Shown: piece by piece, positions 11,025 through 38,989 of the stretch
Layout of the letters: every line of letters starts with the position of its first letter
Numbering within the stretch: position 1 is the stretch's first letter
Source: Escherichia coli
Lineage (GTDB): Bacteria > Pseudomonadota > Gammaproteobacteria > Enterobacterales > Enterobacteriaceae
Assembly: GCA_025544715.1 (NCBI GenBank)
Contig: GCA_025544715.1_4109.3
Length of the DNA stretch: 64,000 nt
Strand: one strand, 5' to 3'
The notes under the pieces: generated by a model
What the model was told of the DNA's origin: nothing
The model's input: only the letters and a program-made list of their open reading frames with translations
Database searches by the model: none
Translations under genes and position numbers: made by a program

Positions 11025-11435
11025 TTAATCGTAGTAGGTTCTACCTACAGTTATGTGATATTTAAAGTACTTGGTTGGTAGTCCTAGTTCGTTTCTAATG
11101 TGTGTGATGAAATCATCTTCAAATTCAATGATAAAGAATGAACCTGGATTCTTTTTATCTTTTACTATCTCAATAGAAGGATTGAACTTTATCTTTACTT
11201 TCATTCCATCGTATTTTTTCCAGAACTCTTCATGTGGTGGTACTTCACCACGCACTATACTAACATGTGCTCCCCATTGAGGATCTTTAACATCAATATG
11301 TAAATCAGTTCTGATGAAGTACTGGTAGTATCTAACCAACTGTAATGGAAGTTGTAGTACTAACCAGAAGTCCTTCTTCTTTTTCATAGTGCCACGATCT
11401 GGATCATACACCAGAGTTCCTTCCATTTCAATCAT
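11025..11435 (-). CDS. 2H phosphoesterase superfamily protein (LigT/Acb1-like)
   Basis: Two H-x-[ST]-x motifs (HVSIV and HITVG) with spacing typical of 2H fold. Confidence 0.5.
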   Translation of the reverse strand: MIEMEGTLVYDPDRGTMKKKKDFWLVLQLPLQLVRYYQYFIRTDLHIDVKDPQWGAHVSIVRGEVPPHEEFWKKYDGMKVKIKFNPSIEIVKDKKNPGSFFIIEFEDDFITHIRNELGLPTKYFKYHITVGRTYYD

Positions 11436-11649: not shown

Positions 11650-11781
11650 TTACACCACAATAAAGCTTAATACAACGAGTGTAATAAACACACCCACGAT
11701 GGCAGTCATTTCTGGGTTTGCATCATATGTATAGCGTATACATTTTAGAAAATCTTTACCAAATTTCTTTAGTCCATTCAT
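11650..11781 (-). CDS. Small tail-anchored membrane peptide (43 aa), not in ORF track
   Basis: Own translation MNGLKKFGKDFLKCIRYTYDANPEMTAIVGVFITLVVLSFIVV; AAGGA RBS upstream; abuts next gene start. Confidence 0.3.
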   Translation of the reverse strand: MNGLKKFGKDFLKCIRYTYDANPEMTAIVGVFITLVVLSFIVV

Positions 11782-18417: not shown

Positions 18418-19074
18418 TCAATCATGTTTATTCAATTTCTTCTGTTCTTTTTTCAAAGCTTTCATATGACGACCAAACTCTCGAACATGCCATAGATGAT
18501 CGGTTTCCCATAATTCTTGACGTAACCTACGTTCTTCTAGTAGTTTCGACTTGTCAATGTTATTTTTCTTTTTTTGTACATTAAAGAAATTATTCATATG
18601 TTCTTGAAGAAGATTACGACCTTTAACTTTCTCAAGAAACTCATCAACTGTTTCAGTTTTATTAGAACGTAGTTGATTGCATTTGGAGCACATAGTATTA
18701 AAGTTTGTTTCTAAATCAGGACCACCCTTAGATGCCAGATGGTTGTGATCAACTGTCATCAACACTTCATAAAGACCACATACAGCATATACATTTAAAT
18801 GTGGTTTACCATATACTGGATCAGAACTAAATGAACGTTCAATGCGTACTTCAGTGGCTTCAATCCCACATGCCACGCATTTTGGATTCTTAACAAAAGT
18901 AAGAACTTTTTGTGGGAAATATCGAAAAGTAATACCATTTAAAGTATAACGTTTCATCTTAGTACTTCGTTGATTTAATTCGTCAAGAAGTGATAATTTT
19001 GTCGTATAGTAAACATGATATTTGTTCATTTTATTCCTTGATATTGATTTTAATATCTTTACCTTGTAAATCAC
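18418..19074 (-). CDS. HNH homing endonuclease (likely start at 19029)
   Basis: HNH motif DHNHLASKGG...N...CSKCN with flanking Cys pairs. Confidence 0.6.
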   Translation of the reverse strand: MIYKVKILKSISRNKMNKYHVYYTTKLSLLDELNQRSTKMKRYTLNGITFRYFPQKVLTFVKNPKCVACGIEATEVRIERSFSSDPVYGKPHLNVYAVCGLYEVLMTVDHNHLASKGGPDLETNFNTMCSKCNQLRSNKTETVDEFLEKVKGRNLLQEHMNNFFNVQKKKNNIDKSKLLEERRLRQELWETDHLWHVREFGRHMKALKKEQKKLNKHD

Positions 19075-19339
19075 GAATAGTTTTAATTAATGCATCATGT
19101 TTTAAAGCACATTCGTTGTATACTGCATCCCAACGAGTAAGTACTTTAAGAATTTCTGCACCATCATAACCTTTAAAACCATTTTTGTCAATCATAATTT
19201 TTTGTGGTAGAGGTGTATCATCATCACATCTTTCTAACAGAATTTCTTGTTTAATTGGTGCAGGGGATTGTAGTTTTACTTGTTCTGCACATCCACTTAT
19301 AATTAAAAAAGAAATAAACGGAACTAATAATTTTTTCAT
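19031..19339 (-). CDS. Outer-membrane lipoprotein, putative o-spanin
   Basis: Signal peptide with lipobox LIISGC; directly downstream of TM plus coiled-coil gene. Confidence 0.45.
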   Translation of the reverse strand: MKKLLVPFISFLIISGCAEQVKLQSPAPIKQEILLERCDDDTPLPQKIMIDKNGFKGYDGAEILKVLTRWDAVYNECALKHDALIKTIRDLQGKDIKINIKE

Positions 19340-33955: not shown

Positions 33956-35824
33956 TTATTTGTGCTGAATACGCTCACAACACTCTTGTTGTTTGCCTTT
34001 ATTGAATCCACGCGAAGAAGGATTACCCAAGTAACCAGAAACACGACGAATCACTGAGATTGTCTTCTCATTACGATTATCACATACCGGACAGTGGAAA
34101 CCATGTTTATCTACACTGAACTCACCCTGGAAGCCACATTCATAACAATGGTCAACGGGTTGGTTAATACCAAAATATGGTATCTTCGTGTAAGCATAGT
34201 TAACTAATGTTTCAAGTGCTTGAATGTTGTTTGCTAAGTTTGGAGATTCAACATAACTGATGTTTCCACCGTTACTTAGGTAAGCAAAGCCTTCTTCATA
34301 ACTCCATTTATCAAATGGAGAACTTTCTACCCATACTGGTTGATGAAAGGAATTTGTGATGTAATCACGTTTTAGTACTGACGGATATTTTGCTTCAATA
34401 CAACGTGCAAATTTATAACAAAGTGACTCTGCTGGAGTTCCATATAGACTAAAAGCTATATTACTCTCTTTTTTGAACTCATCACATTTTACTTTCATAT
34501 AATTCAGTACTGACATACAAAACTCCTTACTGATAGAACCAGTGAGGATTTCTGAACATTCAACAAGTCCAACATAACCAATACTAATACTAGCATAACC
34601 ATTGTAAAATAGCTTGTCAATGGTTTCTTCTGCACCTAAACGTGCTAATGCACCTTCCATGAACAAAATTGGATTTTGCTTTGCTTTAGTGCCTTTTAAA
34701 CGCTCTACGCGGTTCATCTGAGCACGATATGCAATATTCATATGCTCGTCTATCTTATCAAAAAACTCTCCGTCAGAAGCACTCTCAAGAGCAATTAGAG
34801 GTAAATTGATAGAAACCACACCTAAATTGAAACGACCGTTGTATTGTTCATTTCCATTAGAATCTTCCCATTTTCCTAAGAATGAACGACAGCCCATCGG
34901 TGTTACCGCAGTACTACTACTTCCAGTCACTTTGTGATTTAATGGTACGGAAACAAAGTCAGGGTAGATTCGTTTTGATGCACAACGCATAGCTAACTGT
35001 TTAAGGTCATAATTACTATCATTGGTATTCATGTTTATACCATCTTGTAAAAAGAAAATTACTTTAGGAAACACTGGAGTAATCTTATCTTTACCTAAAC
35101 CATTCTCATGAACTTTTAAGTACTGTTCAGTGATTAATTTACCAAATTTAGAAGTGTTAAGACCTAAACTAAGAGAAATAAATGCAGCTTGACCATTAGT
35201 ACTAATCATTGAATTAGTTTGGTAAAGTAATGTTTGGCAGCCATCGTATACTTCTTTTCGTAGTTCTTCTTCAATGAATTCATCACTTAGATTATATTTC
35301 TTTTGTTTTTCTAACAGCTTATCCCATGACTTTTGAACGTAAGGTTCTAATCCGACATCAATGTGAGCCAAAGATTGACCACCATACTGGGAACTGGCAA
35401 CAGCTTGGACAATTTGTGTCAGTACTGTACATGCTACACTAAAACTCTTTGGTTCTTCAATTTTAGCACAACCAATGGTGAATCCATTTTTTAGCATATC
35501 TGGGTAGTTAACTAAGCAACAGTTGGTTAATGGGCTGATATAGTAGTCTAAATCATGGATATGACCATAACCATCATTATGCCACTGCATTAGCTCATTT
35601 GGAATAACATCTTGTGAATAATGCTTAGATAGGATACCTGCAAGTAAATCCCTGTGTGTATTGACGCATTTCGCATCTTTGTTCGCATTTTCGTTTGTAA
35701 GATCAGTATTGCTCTGATTGAGGAAATTCGTTACGTCAGTATATAATTTATCTAATTGCATTGTACATTCCTTGTATTTTGAAATCATCTGGGGGTGAAG
35801 ATATTTAATATCACCAGACAACAT
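33956..35824 (-). CDS. nrdD: Anaerobic ribonucleoside-triphosphate reductase
   Basis: C-terminal zinc ribbon CYECG...CPVC and glycyl-radical motif RRVSGYLG; uninterrupted 622 aa. Confidence 0.9.
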   Translation of the reverse strand: MLSGDIKYLHPQMISKYKECTMQLDKLYTDVTNFLNQSNTDLTNENANKDAKCVNTHRDLLAGILSKHYSQDVIPNELMQWHNDGYGHIHDLDYYISPLTNCCLVNYPDMLKNGFTIGCAKIEEPKSFSVACTVLTQIVQAVASSQYGGQSLAHIDVGLEPYVQKSWDKLLEKQKKYNLSDEFIEEELRKEVYDGCQTLLYQTNSMISTNGQAAFISLSLGLNTSKFGKLITEQYLKVHENGLGKDKITPVFPKVIFFLQDGINMNTNDSNYDLKQLAMRCASKRIYPDFVSVPLNHKVTGSSSTAVTPMGCRSFLGKWEDSNGNEQYNGRFNLGVVSINLPLIALESASDGEFFDKIDEHMNIAYRAQMNRVERLKGTKAKQNPILFMEGALARLGAEETIDKLFYNGYASISIGYVGLVECSEILTGSISKEFCMSVLNYMKVKCDEFKKESNIAFSLYGTPAESLCYKFARCIEAKYPSVLKRDYITNSFHQPVWVESSPFDKWSYEEGFAYLSNGGNISYVESPNLANNIQALETLVNYAYTKIPYFGINQPVDHCYECGFQGEFSVDKHGFHCPVCDNRNEKTISVIRRVSGYLGNPSSRGFNKGKQQECCERIQHK

Positions 35825-35898
35825 TATAGCGTCAGAACAGGTTATTTCTCTTGACCTATATCAAGGAAAAGTCACATTGGTTTTTATTTGCACAAATA

Positions 35899-35920
35899 GA
35901 AAAAGCACCACTAGGGTGCT
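35899..35920 (-). terminator. Rho-independent terminator upstream of nrdD
   Basis: Hairpin GCACC-loop-GGTGC then T5. Confidence 0.55.
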
Positions 35921-36037
35921 TTAAAGTACTGCTAATATAACAACTGCCCAAATTAACAGTAATACATTGGTTGGGGCTGAAAAAATCATATATGCAGCAA
36001 TTGCACTACAACCTATGACAAGTTTAGCTAGTCTCAT
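35921..36037 (-). CDS. Small hydrophobic peptide (38 aa), not in ORF track
   Basis: Own translation MRLAKLVIGCSAIAAYMIFSAPTNVLLLIWAVVILAVL; GGAG RBS; terminator immediately after. Confidence 0.3.
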   Translation of the reverse strand: MRLAKLVIGCSAIAAYMIFSAPTNVLLLIWAVVILAVL

Positions 36038-36209
36038 CTGGACTCCATGTAATAGTCACTGTGAACGTCCCTTCCTGAAAACCAAACTCATCTTGTGGGA
36101 TTTGTTCAGCTAATGGGTTAAATCTTGAATCGAAGGCTTCATGTACGTCTCTTTGAATATCATAGAGACTTTCACCATCATATTCTTTTTTAAATATTAC
36201 ACTTCCCAT
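36024..36209 (-). CDS. Hypothetical protein (61 aa)
   Basis: ORF in array. Confidence 0.35.
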   Translation of the reverse strand: MGSVIFKKEYDGESLYDIQRDVHEAFDSRFNPLAEQIPQDEFGFQEGTFTVTITWSPDETS

Positions 36210-36222
36210 AATATAACTCCTA

Positions 36223-36438
36223 CTACAAAACGTTACAGTAGAACTGAATGATGTAAGGAAATAAAGGATTATTTACGTATGTTGCAAAATTAGCTATTGT
36301 AACTTTTTTATAGTACGAGTTGTGAATTGTTATAATAGTGTGAGGATCTATTGATTCTCTATTAGAGAGTTCAACAAAACGCCCACACTTCATATAAGCC
36401 TTACCATAATAATCGTAAATTATATCGTATTTTTCCAT
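36223..36438 (-). CDS. Hypothetical protein (71 aa)
   Basis: ORF in array. Confidence 0.35.
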   Translation of the reverse strand: MEKYDIIYDYYGKAYMKCGRFVELSNRESIDPHTIITIHNSYYKKVTIANFATYVNNPLFPYIIQFYCNVL

Positions 36439-36798
36439 TTATTCAGGATCTTTGTTTTTATCAACTGTGTTGTTTTTATTCAAATCAATTTGTAAAGCCA
36501 TTGCAGCTTCAGCATTTTCTTCATGTGTGCCATTGAATTTATACCCATTCTTAATGAGATTCACTGTGTAGTACTTATTATAAAGAAATGCCCAAACGAT
36601 CATCGCAATAGTACCTACAATCCAAAAAGACACTGCGTTTAGGATGAAGTAAATTACAAATGCACCAATGAACGTAATAAAGTCACCACGGAACAATGCA
36701 GGGAAAGGTCCAAAAAATAATGTAGTCCAAGAAAAACCAAAGAAACCATCTTTGCGTTGTCCTACATTTTCATTTTTTAAAGAAATTGTTTTAGCCAT
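36439..36798 (-). CDS. Membrane protein (start likely MAKTISL at 36798)
   Basis: Two TM helices; motif GFSWTTLFFGPFPALFRG. Confidence 0.45.
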   Translation of the reverse strand: MAKTISLKNENVGQRKDGFFGFSWTTLFFGPFPALFRGDFITFIGAFVIYFILNAVSFWIVGTIAMIVWAFLYNKYYTVNLIKNGYKFNGTHEENAEAAMALQIDLNKNNTVDKNKDPE

Positions 36799-36808
36799 TT
36801 TTAATCTC

Positions 36809-37030
36809 CTACTTTTTATTTGGGTTTGGTATGCAGTACACAAATACTAAATGATTAAAATGTTCTGTATTCGCATACTTTGCTAAGTCGGTTATGATGA
36901 AGTTTGTATCTTTAAATCTGCCATCATTGAATGTTGTGATTTGAAAACGTAGTTCAGGTGCAAAAATATAATAATAGAATATATCATTTACACACCCAAC
37001 AGTATGTTTAGCATATCTTTCAATTTTCAT
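36809..37030 (-). CDS. Hypothetical protein (73 aa)
   Basis: ORF in array. Confidence 0.35.
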   Translation of the reverse strand: MKIERYAKHTVGCVNDIFYYYIFAPELRFQITTFNDGRFKDTNFIITDLAKYANTEHFNHLVFVYCIPNPNKK

Positions 37031-37395
37031 GTGTGGATGATCTCTTTTACCCCGTATTCATAGATTGCCAATGAGCAAATCTCACAAGGTTTTGCTGGAA
37101 CTGGAATTCCATCTTTACTTACACGAGCAATCAGAAGAGTATGAACTTCAGCACGTGCAGCAAGTAAACATGAAATTTCAGCATGAAGAAACTCACCTTG
37201 TGGTCGCCCAGCACGAATTGCGAAACCCTTCTGTACTGGGTGAGTCTGTGTATAAGAATTTGTGCGAGTTGCTAGTACTCTACCTTTTTTATCAAGTGCA
37301 CGAGCAATAACACGATACCGTTTGTAATTTCCTACTTGTTCAATAGGCGGCATCTGGCGTAATTCTTCGATTAGTTTCTCCAATTTACTATTCAT
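37027..37395 (-). CDS. Compact cytidine/dCMP-deaminase-fold zinc-binding protein
   Basis: HAE...PCEIC zinc-binding motifs with ~24 aa spacing. Confidence 0.55.
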   Translation of the reverse strand: MNSKLEKLIEELRQMPPIEQVGNYKRYRVIARALDKKGRVLATRTNSYTQTHPVQKGFAIRAGRPQGEFLHAEISCLLAARAEVHTLLIARVSKDGIPVPAKPCEICSLAIYEYGVKEIIHT

Positions 37396-38018
37396 AAGTC
37401 TAAGTCTATACCTTTTTCAATAGATTTCTCTAGAACCCAAAGTTTACATTCTTCACTCTCCAAATGTATCTTTGCCTCTTTCTGTTGTTCTATTGTACAA
37501 GACTTTATGAATTCACGCAAGGCTTCTATCGTATTTTTTAAATTTTTTATATCATCGATAATTTTTTCTTTGGTTTCTTCATCGATTACACATGAACTCC
37601 AACTGTGTCGTTCCTCCCAAACAGTTTTAGTAGGATTATAAATTGATGGAGTAGATTTGAATGCATGGATCTTATTAAAGGTATCGTCCGCTTCTTGTTG
37701 GGTGTAATCACCATATGTTCTTAGCACATTTTTGTATAATTCATCAATGGCCTCTTCATACGTATCACCACCACAATCCAATTGATAATCATGTGCTTGT
37801 ACCCATTCGTCGTCTTGCTCAATATACATTGGTGAAAGAAATTCTACCCAAAATTGATTCTTTGTATTCAATGCTTTGAAATCTTCAATTCGATTTGTCA
37901 TTGGACACACATCATGAGGTTCAATATCAATCCTAGCTGGAACCATATCTTTGTTTATGAATTTAGGATGACCCAAAATCCACCAGTACTTTTCCGATGT
38001 AGTCATAATAATCTCCAA
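37392..38018 (-). CDS. Hypothetical protein (208 aa)
   Basis: ORF in array. Confidence 0.45.
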   Translation of the reverse strand: MEIIMTTSEKYWWILGHPKFINKDMVPARIDIEPHDVCPMTNRIEDFKALNTKNQFWVEFLSPMYIEQDDEWVQAHDYQLDCGGDTYEEAIDELYKNVLRTYGDYTQQEADDTFNKIHAFKSTPSIYNPTKTVWEERHSWSSCVIDEETKEKIIDDIKNLKNTIEALREFIKSCTIEQQKEAKIHLESEECKLWVLEKSIEKGIDLDL

Positions 38019-38052
38019 TTAAAAAGTACTGCCCGTGATGGCAGTACTGATG

Positions 38053-38412
38053 TTAAACGTAACGTTTCTTTTTATAATCATACCCTACTGCTTTGTAAAA
38101 GTCAAACAAAGAAGCATGTTCAAATGTAGGTAATAGATCATATGGGTGCTGATAGTTCGCAATACCAACAATAGCCATCATTGATTCAGCAGTTCTTACG
38201 TTCTCACTATCCCATTCATCTAAACGCCAAAGTGAGCAAAGTACCTCTCGTTCATGTTGCTTACCCAGAAAGAATCCAGCTTCACGGTCACGAAATGCAC
38301 CTACACTGACAGTACTTTTGTACCAGTCTTTTTCACCATATAATGGCATACGGATAATATGTTTTTCTTTAGCTTCTCCAAAGCGATGAAGAAATGCTAC
38401 ATAATCACTCAT
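38053..38412 (-). CDS. Hypothetical protein (119 aa)
   Basis: ORF in array. Confidence 0.45.
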   Translation of the reverse strand: MSDYVAFLHRFGEAKEKHIIRMPLYGEKDWYKSTVSVGAFRDREAGFFLGKQHEREVLCSLWRLDEWDSENVRTAESMMAIVGIANYQHPYDLLPTFEHASLFDFYKAVGYDYKKKRYV

Positions 38413-38579
38413 AATTTATAACCCATTACAGGTTTGTTATGATCCGGTTCGTAAGACTTTTCAGTACTGAACCCTCTGAAATTACCACGTCCTGGATTTG
38501 GACAAGCCATCCCTTGTATTGAATGCTTACCCTTATCTTTGCCACAATTTTTACATTTGTAGCCAATTACTTCTTTCAT
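38409..38579 (-). CDS. Small zinc-ribbon protein (56 aa), not in ORF track
   Basis: Own translation MKEVIGYKCKNCGKDKGKHSIQGMACPNPGRG...; ATGA overlaps on both sides. Confidence 0.35.
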   Translation of the reverse strand: MKEVIGYKCKNCGKDKGKHSIQGMACPNPGRGNFRGFSTEKSYEPDHNKPVMGYKL

Positions 38580-38806
38580 TGTGCATCCTTCGGAACAGTA
38601 TTAAGACGTTTGCGATTCACAATCTTCCTGCACATGAGATTAAGATCTTGCCCATGACGCATAGTATGACATGCATATAGTGTTCCTTGATGATTTAGTT
38701 TTGTTAAACCTTGACGGATGATTTCAGCATCCATCTCATCAACTTTAGGAGCACAGCCACTGAGAAATACAATAGAAGAAATAATAAAAATATATAATAA
38801 TTTCAT
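38576..38806 (-). CDS. Small lipoprotein (76 aa)
   Basis: Signal peptide with lipobox FLSGC. Confidence 0.4.
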   Translation of the reverse strand: MKLLYIFIISSIVFLSGCAPKVDEMDAEIIRQGLTKLNHQGTLYACHTMRHGQDLNLMCRKIVNRKRLNTVPKDAQ

Positions 38807-38809
38807 AAT

Positions 38810-38989
38810 TTAATCACCTATACATAAGTACTCGATTGATGGTTTACCATTAACTAACACAATTCCAGTGTGAGTTAATACACAGTTGTCGGGAGCTTCT
38901 TCAAACACTGATACGTAAATGTATGAACCATTACTAACTGAACAAGATAATACCATAATAACTGCGATTAGTACAAGTAAAATTTTCAT
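38810..38989 (-). CDS. Small lipoprotein (59 aa), not in ORF track
   Basis: Own translation MKILLVLIAVIMVLSCSVSNG...; lipobox VLSC; ATGA overlap with upstream gene. Confidence 0.3.
   Translation of the reverse strand: MKILLVLIAVIMVLSCSVSNGSYIYVSVFEEAPDNCVLTHTGIVLVNGKPSIEYLCIGD

Follow-up and report, generated by a model that had tools for sequence, protein, structure and literature searches.

The window, the whole 64,000-nucleotide stretch of DNA analysed here, derives from an Asteriusvirus, a jumbo coliphage of the 121Q/PBECO4 type, and is 96.8% identical to SHEFM2K over the 3.9-kb region searched. It carries five small open reading frames (ORFs), all on the minus strand and each preceded by a Shine-Dalgarno motif 5′ of its start: A38, C56, D76, E59 and F43, where the number is the length in amino acids. 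Sequence comparison makes it very probable that all five are genuine, conserved protein-coding genes, the predicted products being a zinc finger, a pair of outer-membrane lipoproteins and two very small membrane peptides. A preliminary description had proposed just these ORFs, and all of them are present where it placed them.

Small genes and their neighbourhood

The five ORFs fall in two regions of small genes, mostly without known function. The main region is flanked by genes of nucleotide metabolism (dCMP deaminase and NrdD, with PhoH in relatives) and includes a transcription unit in the order 112aa-219aa-E59-D76-C56-119aa, in which E59, D76, C56 and the 119-aa gene are joined through overlapping or near-abutting stop and start codons. 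The stop codon of one gene overlaps the start of the next at three junctions: from the 219-aa gene to E59 (38986-38989), from D76 to C56 (38576-38579) and from C56 to the 119-aa gene (38409-38412); the ATGA overlaps reported earlier on both sides of C56 are thus real. A terminator-like hairpin (38025..38048, minus strand) follows the 119-aa gene and closes the unit. All five small ORFs overlap their neighbours or lie close against them, and terminators mark the ends of the units.

IMG/VR scans with the neighbouring proteins returned 121Q alone, and comparisons were therefore made on GenBank phage records. 121Q (KM507819) and PBECO4-like phages carry orthologues of these genes in unchanged order, at 95-100% amino-acid identity. 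Unlike 121Q, the window phage has no homologue of the 411-nt gp494 gene nearby. The preliminary description called the five ORFs unannotated, which holds in part. C56, D76, E59 and F43 are coding sequences in 121Q (gp487, gp486, gp485 and gp529), labelled only 'hypothetical protein', and C56, E59 and F43 also belong to PHROG families 10623, 22308 and 37784, of unknown function. A38 is indeed uncalled in 121Q, PBECO4, SP27 and Ecwhy_1, as it is in EC.P1 and UE-S1, and is called in six other records. Overall, the five ORFs have been independently called as genes in many public phage records.

The preliminary description had named conservation of the reading frames in related genomes as its own test, and the frames are conserved and under purifying selection. 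Codon-level comparison with 8-12 relatives (A38 was checked in 15) gave summed pN/pS values in the proposed frame of 0.29 for A38, 0.19 for C56, 0.30 for D76, 0.43 for E59 and 0.09 for F43, with no stop codons. For each ORF, stops interrupt four of the five other frames, whose pN/pS exceeds 1, and the antisense -1 frame is second lowest throughout (0.27-0.47). Accepted neighbour genes fall in the same dN/dS range as the five small ORFs. No Rfam family or tRNA overlaps them, and NCBIfam and Pfam searches with all five yielded no match above threshold. A search of the Asteriusvirus literature found no transcriptome or infected-cell proteome, only mass spectrometry of the phAPEC6 virion. Hydropathy also agrees with the earlier reading: the 38-mer is hydrophobic throughout, the 43-mer has a C-terminal anchor, and the 76- and 59-mers have N-terminal signal peptides.

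Two hydrophobic membrane peptides

A38 (35921..36037, minus strand) is a fully hydrophobic, two-segment membrane peptide by its sequence, MRLAKLVIGCSAIAAYMIFSAPTNVLLLIWAVVILAVL. It comes last in its transcription unit and shares its first 14 nt with the end of a 61-aa gene, and GGAG lies 5 nt upstream of its ATG. An intrinsic terminator hairpin (35902..35922, minus strand; AAAGCACCctagtGGTGCTTT followed by a T-run) begins at the A38 stop codon, is mostly conserved across seven phages and is annotated as a terminator in UE-S1. The ORF is intact, with 38 codons, in 13 of 15 relatives; a 25-nt deletion disrupts it in A4, and it is also broken in the UNVERIFIED CMSTMSU record. The exact A38 sequence occurs in no protein database, and a PHROG search found no significant match (best E 0.056). 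The string VIGC10 was weighed as a lipobox and dismissed, since its h-region would be too short and has a Lys inside, and Cys10 is Leu in Turkey5.

It is improbable that A38 is not a gene at all, and is instead a frame left open by chance in the 3′ untranslated part of the operon, close to the terminator, that has stayed open through DNA conserved for other reasons or through hydrophobic codons that rarely mutate to stops. In favour of this, A38 is only 38 codons long and has the weakest statistics of the five, its ATG lies within conserved Asp-Glu codons of the 61-aa gene, and it is truncated in A4. The lack of calls in the six records named above and of a significant PHROG match is also in keeping with it, and in close relatives the chance of the frame staying open is as high as 36-57%. 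The antisense -1 frame is likewise free of stops, but its pN/pS is 0.47 against 0.29 for A38, and the other four frames exceed 1. The distant relative Turkey5 (67% nucleotide identity) weighs further against a chance frame, as it keeps the exact 38-codon length and the hydrophobicity despite 37 substitutions, for which the probability that the frame stayed open by chance is about 0.04. The GGAG before the ATG, the terminator adjoining the stop codon and the intact ORF in most genomes argue in the same direction, that is, for A38 as a real gene.

F43 (11650..11781, minus strand) is the same gene as 121Q gp529 and matches the phrog_37784 HMM over its full length (E 9.7e-35). Its N-terminal 25 residues are basic and hydrophilic, and residues 23-43 of 43, hydrophobic on the Kyte-Doolittle scale, form a predicted transmembrane segment that closes the peptide; with no N-terminal signal peptide, this is the predicted topology of a tail-anchored membrane peptide. 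F43 is 100% identical at the amino-acid level in 31 records, and comparison with WPEC3 and EC.P1 shows eight synonymous and no non-synonymous changes.

The composition of A38 and F43 is that of small, hydrophobic membrane peptides, which would insert into the inner membrane. Like other small phage and bacterial membrane peptides, they are shorter than 50 aa and dominated by one or two hydrophobic segments of transmembrane length. They have no sequence relatives outside Asteriusvirus, and A38 belongs to no family.

A stand-alone CCHC zinc finger

C56 (38409..38579, minus strand), the same gene as 121Q gp487, encodes a basic protein (pI 9.5) with the motif C9-x2-C12-x6-H19-x6-C26-P. These two Cys, the His and the final Cys are the sole invariant columns across 40 homologues of 26-54% identity. 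Every one of them matches phrog_10623, as does C56 itself over residues 1-56 of 56 (E 1.2e-27). The family includes phi92 gp033, annotated as a 'predicted zinc finger-containing protein'; its members share with C56 the C-x2-C-x6-H-x6-C-P core and GRGxF and YxP motifs, although C56 is only 38-44% identical to the phi92 and phAPEC8 group. Homologues of C56 occur in 173 phage records. The module is found alone, in tandem or fused to larger proteins. One such fusion joins it to a NUDIX domain plus an NrtR winged-helix regulator. A distant metagenomic phage retains the synteny around C56.

The exact C56 sequence is deposited as WP_262845352.1 / MCU6292784.1, and an exact-match contig look-up found no match. 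A word-indexed protein search with C56 alone returned only its own cluster, and rerunning with alignments helped. A single-sequence AF2 model reached a pLDDT of 52 and was discarded. No Pfam family covers phrog_10623.

The preliminary description called C56 a zinc-ribbon protein with a CxxC...C motif. The CxxC and the later Cys are there, and the full metal site as read from the alignment comprises Cys9, Cys12, His19 and Cys26, so that with three Cys and one CxxC the protein is a CCHC zinc finger instead. A classical four-Cys zinc ribbon or a C2H2-type finger is very unlikely. Either would account for the CxxC knuckle, for the profile matches to PDB C2H2 fingers and eukaryotic poly-zinc-finger proteins through 'YKCxxCGK', and perhaps for the IMG label 'uncharacterized OB-fold protein' on one member. 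However, His19 takes the fourth invariant place, neither a second CxxC nor an HxxxH is present, and no Pfam zinc-ribbon or C2H2 model reaches threshold. The PDB and poly-zinc-finger matches span only profile positions 5-20, with no single domain significant, and the poly-C2H2 matches from the exhaustive profile search are artefacts of repeated matches to the knuckle. On its sequence, C56 belongs to a phage family that is widespread and uncharacterised, and consists of the CCHC module alone. It would bind zinc through the four invariant residues and, given its strongly basic character, is probably a small regulator that contacts nucleic acid or a host protein.

Two lipoprotein precursors and their possible roles

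D76 (38576..38806, minus strand; 121Q gp486) and E59 (38810..38989, minus strand; 121Q gp485) are, by their N-termini, precursors with lipoprotein signal peptides. Such precursors were recognised by an N-terminal basic residue, an h-region and a lipobox [LVI][ASTVI][GAS]C in roughly the first 35 residues, features that both display. D76 begins with MK, 13 hydrophobic residues and L-S-G-C18 (lipobox LSG|C18), and E59 with MK, 11 hydrophobic residues and V-L-S-C16 (VLS|C16). The Leu at -2 in E59 is non-canonical, yet within the broader lipobox pattern used, which only four ORFs of at least 30 aa match in the 64-kb window. The lipobox Cys is invariant in all five E59-family sequences and present in all full-length D76-family sequences, even though at least four unrelated signal-peptide versions of D76 exist. 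In E. coli, a residue other than Asp at +2 directs a lipoprotein to the outer membrane. With Ala (D76) and Ser (E59) at this position, both proteins are predicted to be sorted there. The preliminary description placed the two lipoproteins in tandem, which is true of their position and does not extend to descent: no BLASTP match links them, the idea that they are paralogues was dropped, and their sequences mark them as unrelated.

Each family has two further invariant Cys besides that of the lipobox. The 59-aa mature domain of D76 is basic, with invariant C46, H47 and C59. Its homologues form 25 clusters, all of 52-82 aa; one member is already named 'Lipoprotein' in UniRef, and the match to Pfam LPAM_1 is weak (E 0.086). 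An AF2 model of D76 (pLDDT 77.7) is a four-stranded beta-meander with C29 and C42 (mature numbering) on adjacent antiparallel strands and in register. A fold search with this model against PDB and BFVD gave no match with E below 0.08 and no significant structural neighbour; the best PDB match had E 0.41 and TM 0.52, and T5 Llp was not among the top 50. The mature domain of E59 is acidic and 44 aa long, with invariant C36 and C56 and an FEEAP motif, and the full-length protein matches the phrog_22308 HMM with E 6.1e-29.

E59 is conserved in some lineages and lost or decayed in others, and comparison of the sequences identifies it as an accessory gene in a variable slot. PBECO4, UE-S1 and EC.P1 have a WGR-domain gene there, and ph0011 retains a pseudogene remnant; the window phage thus holds 121Q-type rather than PBECO4-type cargo. 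This could be a recombination slot that swaps cargo (a lipoprotein, a WGR-domain gene or nothing), with a breakpoint that seems to fall within the part of D76 coding for the signal peptide. E59 was probably left uncalled in the source record, since its exact sequence is in ENA only and a single accession number lies between those of C56 and the 219-aa gene.

Proteins of this kind would bind host envelope proteins during infection. Their most likely role would be to block a receptor or an envelope function, as the T5 Llp and Cor proteins do, with E59 as an exchangeable accessory version of the same function. Llp, a small lipoprotein of the outer membrane that is made early and has a single intramolecular disulfide, jams the receptor FhuA from its periplasmic side, and known exclusion lipoprotein genes adjoin the gene for the receptor-binding protein (PMC9586334). 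D76 and E59 share the format of Llp and Cor: each is made as a phage lipoprotein precursor, has some 45-60 aa in its mature domain and is predicted to be sorted to the outer membrane. Their two conserved Cys would be compatible with one intramolecular disulfide. A role of the superinfection-exclusion type is suggested by this analogy only. Neither protein matched Llp, Cor or superinfection-exclusion PHROGs at E <= 0.1, and profile searches of the PDB, which holds Llp, returned nothing relevant for either family at E <= 10. Unlike the genes of Llp and Cor, those of D76 and E59 are not beside any gene annotated as a receptor-binding protein; the locus sits between PhoH and dCMP deaminase/NrdD, with the 219-aa and 119-aa proteins as neighbours.

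Absence of such an adjoining gene and of homology to Llp or Cor would suit proteins whose action on the host envelope serves something other than exclusion, for instance outer-membrane permeability, protection from envelope attack by the host or competitors, or support of a persistent carrier state. A persistent carrier state of Asteriusvirus has been reported in E. coli isolates. Its genomes are found repeatedly within E. coli assemblies (PMC12768965); this recurrence suggests long-term association with the cell, and the proteins here do carry E. coli labels. Such a purpose is nonetheless doubtful, if of appreciable probability: no positive evidence points to any specific alternative, and an arms-race function would explain the turnover of the E59 slot no less well. 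It is hardly credible that one or both proteins are the o-spanins of a lysis cassette. The o-spanins, such as lambda Rz1 and T4 PseT.3, are in general small outer-membrane lipoproteins with conserved Cys, a format that D76 and E59, with 44-59 mature residues, would share. However, no PHROG spanin family matches them at E <= 0.1, and their mature domains are not proline-rich. The adjoining 219-aa and 119-aa proteins lack an N-terminal hydrophobic segment and thus offer no i-spanin candidate, no endolysin or holin is annotated at the locus in any annotated relative, and E59 is dispensable in many relatives. Blocking of a receptor or envelope function stays the preferred role. A bolder proposal, which we regard as unlikely, is that D76 and E59 found new jumbo-phage families of envelope-targeting lipoproteins, acting for example in receptor masking or exclusion and unrelated to Llp and Cor, and that phrog_10623, present in unrelated myoviruses, fused to an NrtR-type regulator and of no solved structure, is a widespread regulatory CCHC finger.

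The finding of these small genes is correct but ordinary, as nearly all of them already stand as 'hypothetical protein' in public phage records. A threshold on ORF length hides real phage genes, and public annotation had mostly caught them. What is gained is a codon-level case for A38, absent from the 121Q and PBECO4 reference annotations, as a real gene. The 56-aa protein, moreover, is now precisely defined as a CCHC finger family that has four invariant ligands and lacks a Pfam model. In Asteriusvirus, for which no envelope-acting or exclusion factor has been characterised so far, two orphan jumbo-phage lipoprotein families, one of them accessory, now stand as candidate factors of this kind.

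Coding evidence for five small genes of an Asteriusvirus phage

Over the 3.9 kb around the small genes, identity to Escherichia phage SHEFM2K is 96.8%, and it is 83-97% for about 35 further Asteriusvirus jumbo phages of the 121Q/PBECO4 group. The window's 11.6-kb region has the same pattern of similarity to these relatives, and all genes in both regions lie on the minus strand. The exact sequence of C56, a 56-aa protein encoded at 38409-38579, is deposited as WP_262845352.1 / MCU6292784.1 on a 68,122-bp contig under the label 'hypothetical protein [Escherichia coli]', so the window is probably a lytic-phage contig within a bacterial assembly. The window's proteins are deposited under Escherichia coli, in agreement with lytic Asteriusvirus genomes in E. 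coli isolate assemblies; 189 Asteriusvirus genomes have been documented inside bacterial assemblies (PMC12768965).

The five ORFs are present exactly as the preliminary description gave them, all on the minus strand: C56, the lipoprotein precursors D76 (76 aa, 38576-38806) and E59 (59 aa, 38810-38989), the hydrophobic peptide A38 (38 aa, 35921-36037) and the tail-anchored peptide F43 (43 aa, 11650-11781). The ATGA overlaps of C56 with both neighbors are likewise found, with D76 at 38576-38579 and with a 119-aa gene at 38409-38412. An overlap of the same type joins a 219-aa gene to E59 (38986-38989), and the E59-D76 junction reads TAA-TT-ATG. Purine-rich Shine-Dalgarno sequences (GGAG, AAGGA, AGGTGA, TAGGT and AAGGA) stand 5-8 nt upstream of all five ORFs. 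Units are bounded by terminator-like hairpins on the minus strand at 40011-39994 and 38048-38025, the first running 112aa-219aa-E59-D76-C56-119aa. The second unit leads from a 208-aa gene through dCMP deaminase to a 61-aa gene and A38; a third hairpin, at 35922-35902 on the minus strand, adjoins the A38 stop codon. Seven phages largely conserve this hairpin, and the UE-S1 record annotates it. Neither Rfam families nor tRNAs were found anywhere in the window.

Codon alignments of orthologous ORFs from 8-12 relatives per gene contain no stops in the proposed frames and give summed pN/pS values of 0.09 for F43, 0.19 for C56, 0.29 for A38, 0.30 for D76 and 0.43 for E59. Accepted neighbor genes have dN/dS in the same range. 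Of the five other frames, four contain many stops and have pN/pS of 1.1-9. The antisense -1 frame has wobble positions in common with the proposed one; its value is always the second lowest (0.27-0.47), and for A38 it too is free of stops. The reading frames are thus kept in related genomes, and the earlier proposal that these are real genes holds, with near certainty for C56, D76, E59 and F43. The evidence is strongest for F43: its sequence shows 100% identity across 31 records, differs from WPEC3 and EC.P1 by eight synonymous and no non-synonymous changes, and retains a dN of 0.08-0.09 against JNE01 and Turkey5, where dS is saturated. The 136-aa neighbor of the F43 cluster (11025-11435, minus strand) matches the 2H phosphoesterase 'Swiss Army Knife' domain in Pfam, but below threshold (25.6 bits where the cut-off is 27; E 1.6e-5).

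A38 and the nrdD upstream region

A38 is the weakest coding case of the five. It is intact at 38 codons in 13 of 15 genomes, and in Turkey5 its length and hydrophobic character are kept through 37 substitutions (67% nucleotide identity), while its start, stop and open frame survive in only about 4% of simulations of random substitution for this phage. The ORF is broken by a 25-nt deletion in A4 and is also broken in CMSTMSU (MH494197.1), an UNVERIFIED record in which neighbor genes are frameshifted as well; broken ORFs in that record are not to be taken for gene loss. Frameshifts are widespread across the locus in it and affect, among others, C56 and the genes for the 61-aa, 71-aa, 119-aa and 219-aa proteins. 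A38 is very probably a real gene. It comprises two hydrophobic segments separated by SAPTN (GRAVY 1.93), and F43 has a basic 25-residue head followed by a C-terminal transmembrane segment. No relatives of either peptide were found outside Asteriusvirus, and membrane insertion is the only function that their sequences allow to be predicted.

Several further features lie close to A38. A 31-aa TTG ORF (35856-35951, minus strand) is called as a CDS for SHEFM2K and WPEC3; it overlaps both the A38 3′ end and the terminator hairpin and is most likely an overcall. At 36209-36223 the window phage lacks 121Q gp494, a 411-nt gene found in most relatives sampled, where it separates the 61-aa gene from the 71-aa gene. 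The altered protein ends at this junction are consistent with a deletion: the 61-aa protein begins MGSV rather than MQNE, and the 71-aa protein ends CNVL* rather than CRVIK*.

Upstream of nrdD (region 35823-35864) lies an FNR/CRP-type palindrome, TTGATATAGGTCAA (35864->35851, minus strand); a perfect -10 TATAAT (35828->35823, minus strand) comes 22 nt after it. Relative to the implied start point the palindrome center lies 41.5 nt upstream, the spacing of class II FNR promoters. In all phages aligned the half-sites are kept and the spacer varies, and in TH47 the consensus is perfect. Taken alone, the pattern shows no enrichment in the window, where 13 one-mismatch sites compare with an expected 9.1. 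The putative site suggests that host FNR may control the phage anaerobic ribonucleotide reductase. The longest nrdD ORF (622 aa, ATG 35824; region 35761-35824) begins within the putative -10 box, and the true start is more likely that of the 601-aa version used in 121Q and SHEFM2K, which is preceded by AAGGA.

The C56 finger family and two lipoprotein families

Homologs of C56 occur in 173 phage records (tblastn), including unrelated myoviruses of about 150 kb such as the phAPEC8 group (42-44% identity) and phi92, whose gp033 is annotated as a 'predicted zinc finger-containing protein'. An exhaustive profile search with a cut-off of E <= 0.001 returned 276 proteins. The top 150 include about 45 clusters of genuine full-length relatives (41-70 aa), and many of the others are spurious poly-C2H2 proteins that repeatedly match the 'YKCxxCGK' knuckle only. 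When 40 genuine members with 26-54% identity to C56 are aligned, C9, C12, H19 and C26 alone are invariant. The family is therefore defined by a C-x2-C-x6-H-x6-C(P) finger and not by a four-Cys ribbon. All 40 members match phrog_10623, and no Pfam model covers them.

The module is also found at the C-terminus of Munch gp154, at the N-terminus of A4_484 and in tandem in P0096, and in P0158 it is fused to a NUDIX + NrtR winged-helix regulator. Among P0158, P0096 and P0190 it is also joined to a second Cys-rich domain, and it occurs on phage proteins of 169 aa and 267 aa with no other known feature (L013:4121-4924, L025:1653-2162). Such arrangements may offer a way to its function. In a distant metagenomic jumbo phage, a C56 homolog and a D76-type lipoprotein are retained in the same neighborhood, from PhoH to dCMP deaminase. 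A single-sequence structure model of C56 was unusable; the protein is strongly basic (pI 9.5) and is predicted to be a small zinc-stabilized protein that would bind either nucleic acid or a host protein.

D76 and E59 both open with MK, a hydrophobic stretch and a lipobox (LSG before the Cys in D76, VLS in E59), with Ala and Ser, respectively, at position +2. Another ORF with a canonical lipoprotein signal encodes 102 aa at 19031-19339 on the minus strand (MKKLLVPFISFLIISGC, then AEQ...). The D76 family carries its signal peptide in at least four unrelated versions, yet the lipobox Cys is invariant, as is a mature core of Y44, C46, H47, L55, L57, M58, C59, R60 and K61. This invariance extends to relatives of 35-40% identity in phage EJP2, Erwinia phage Hallingskeid and metagenomes. 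In an AF2 model (pLDDT 77.7), the D76 mature domain folds as an antiparallel meander of four strands. The model has no significant neighbor in PDB or BFVD; in it C29 and C42 (mature numbering) lie in register on neighboring strands, compatible with a possible disulfide. In E59 the lipobox Cys, C36, C56 and an FEEAP motif are invariant, and no homology between D76 and E59 was found.

E59 is an accessory gene, present in only 14 records. In PBECO4, UE-S1 and EC.P1 it is replaced by a WGR-domain gene (323-aa protein), with or without a 126-aa gene, and in ph0011 a remnant survives that has lost 78 nt internally and in which TGT has become TGA. Different Asteriusvirus genomes thus carry alternative cargo between the 219-aa gene and D76 (window 38807-38989; L008, L010, L011, L012). 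The D76 signal-peptide version co-varies with this cargo; the implied recombination breakpoint lies immediately 5′ of the lipobox, inside the sequence that codes for the signal peptide.

The best guess from these features is that both proteins would be periplasm-facing outer-membrane lipoproteins acting on host envelope proteins. Among proteins of known function, their closest analogs are T5 Llp and the Cor proteins. Those are small lipoproteins of the outer membrane with a single disulfide; they are produced early in infection and block the receptor from its periplasmic side (PMC9586334). However, no sequence similarity to Llp or Cor was detected, nor fold similarity for the D76 model, and no adjacent gene is annotated here as a receptor-binding protein; membership of that group is not supported. 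By analogy D76 and E59 might be exclusion factors, a tentative and rather doubtful assignment. A spanin role is unlikely because both an i-spanin partner and a lysis context are missing.

Annotation status and significance

The five genes had been described as unannotated, which is true of A38 in some records and does not apply to E59, D76, C56 and F43, which are gp485, gp486, gp487 and gp529 of 121Q (2014) and are called in essentially every annotated relative. C56, E59 and F43 correspond to phrog_10623, phrog_22308 and phrog_37784, each without an assigned function. A38 is called in SHEFM2K, WPEC3, vB_Ec-M-J, ph0011 and fEgEco12, and a CDS covers it in several other records; the call is absent from the 121Q, PBECO4, EC.P1, UE-S1, Ecwhy_1 and SP27 records. 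By exact-sequence look-up, A38 is in no protein database and E59 is in ENA only. E59 is probably uncalled in the source record, since a single accession number separates C56 from the 219-aa protein.

Little of this is new, since these hypothetical genes were already known, as was the phage genus that carries them. What the analysis usefully adds is the argument that A38 is a gene, a definition of phrog_10623 as a CCHC family and an account of two orphan lipoprotein families, of which one occupies a cargo-swapping slot.
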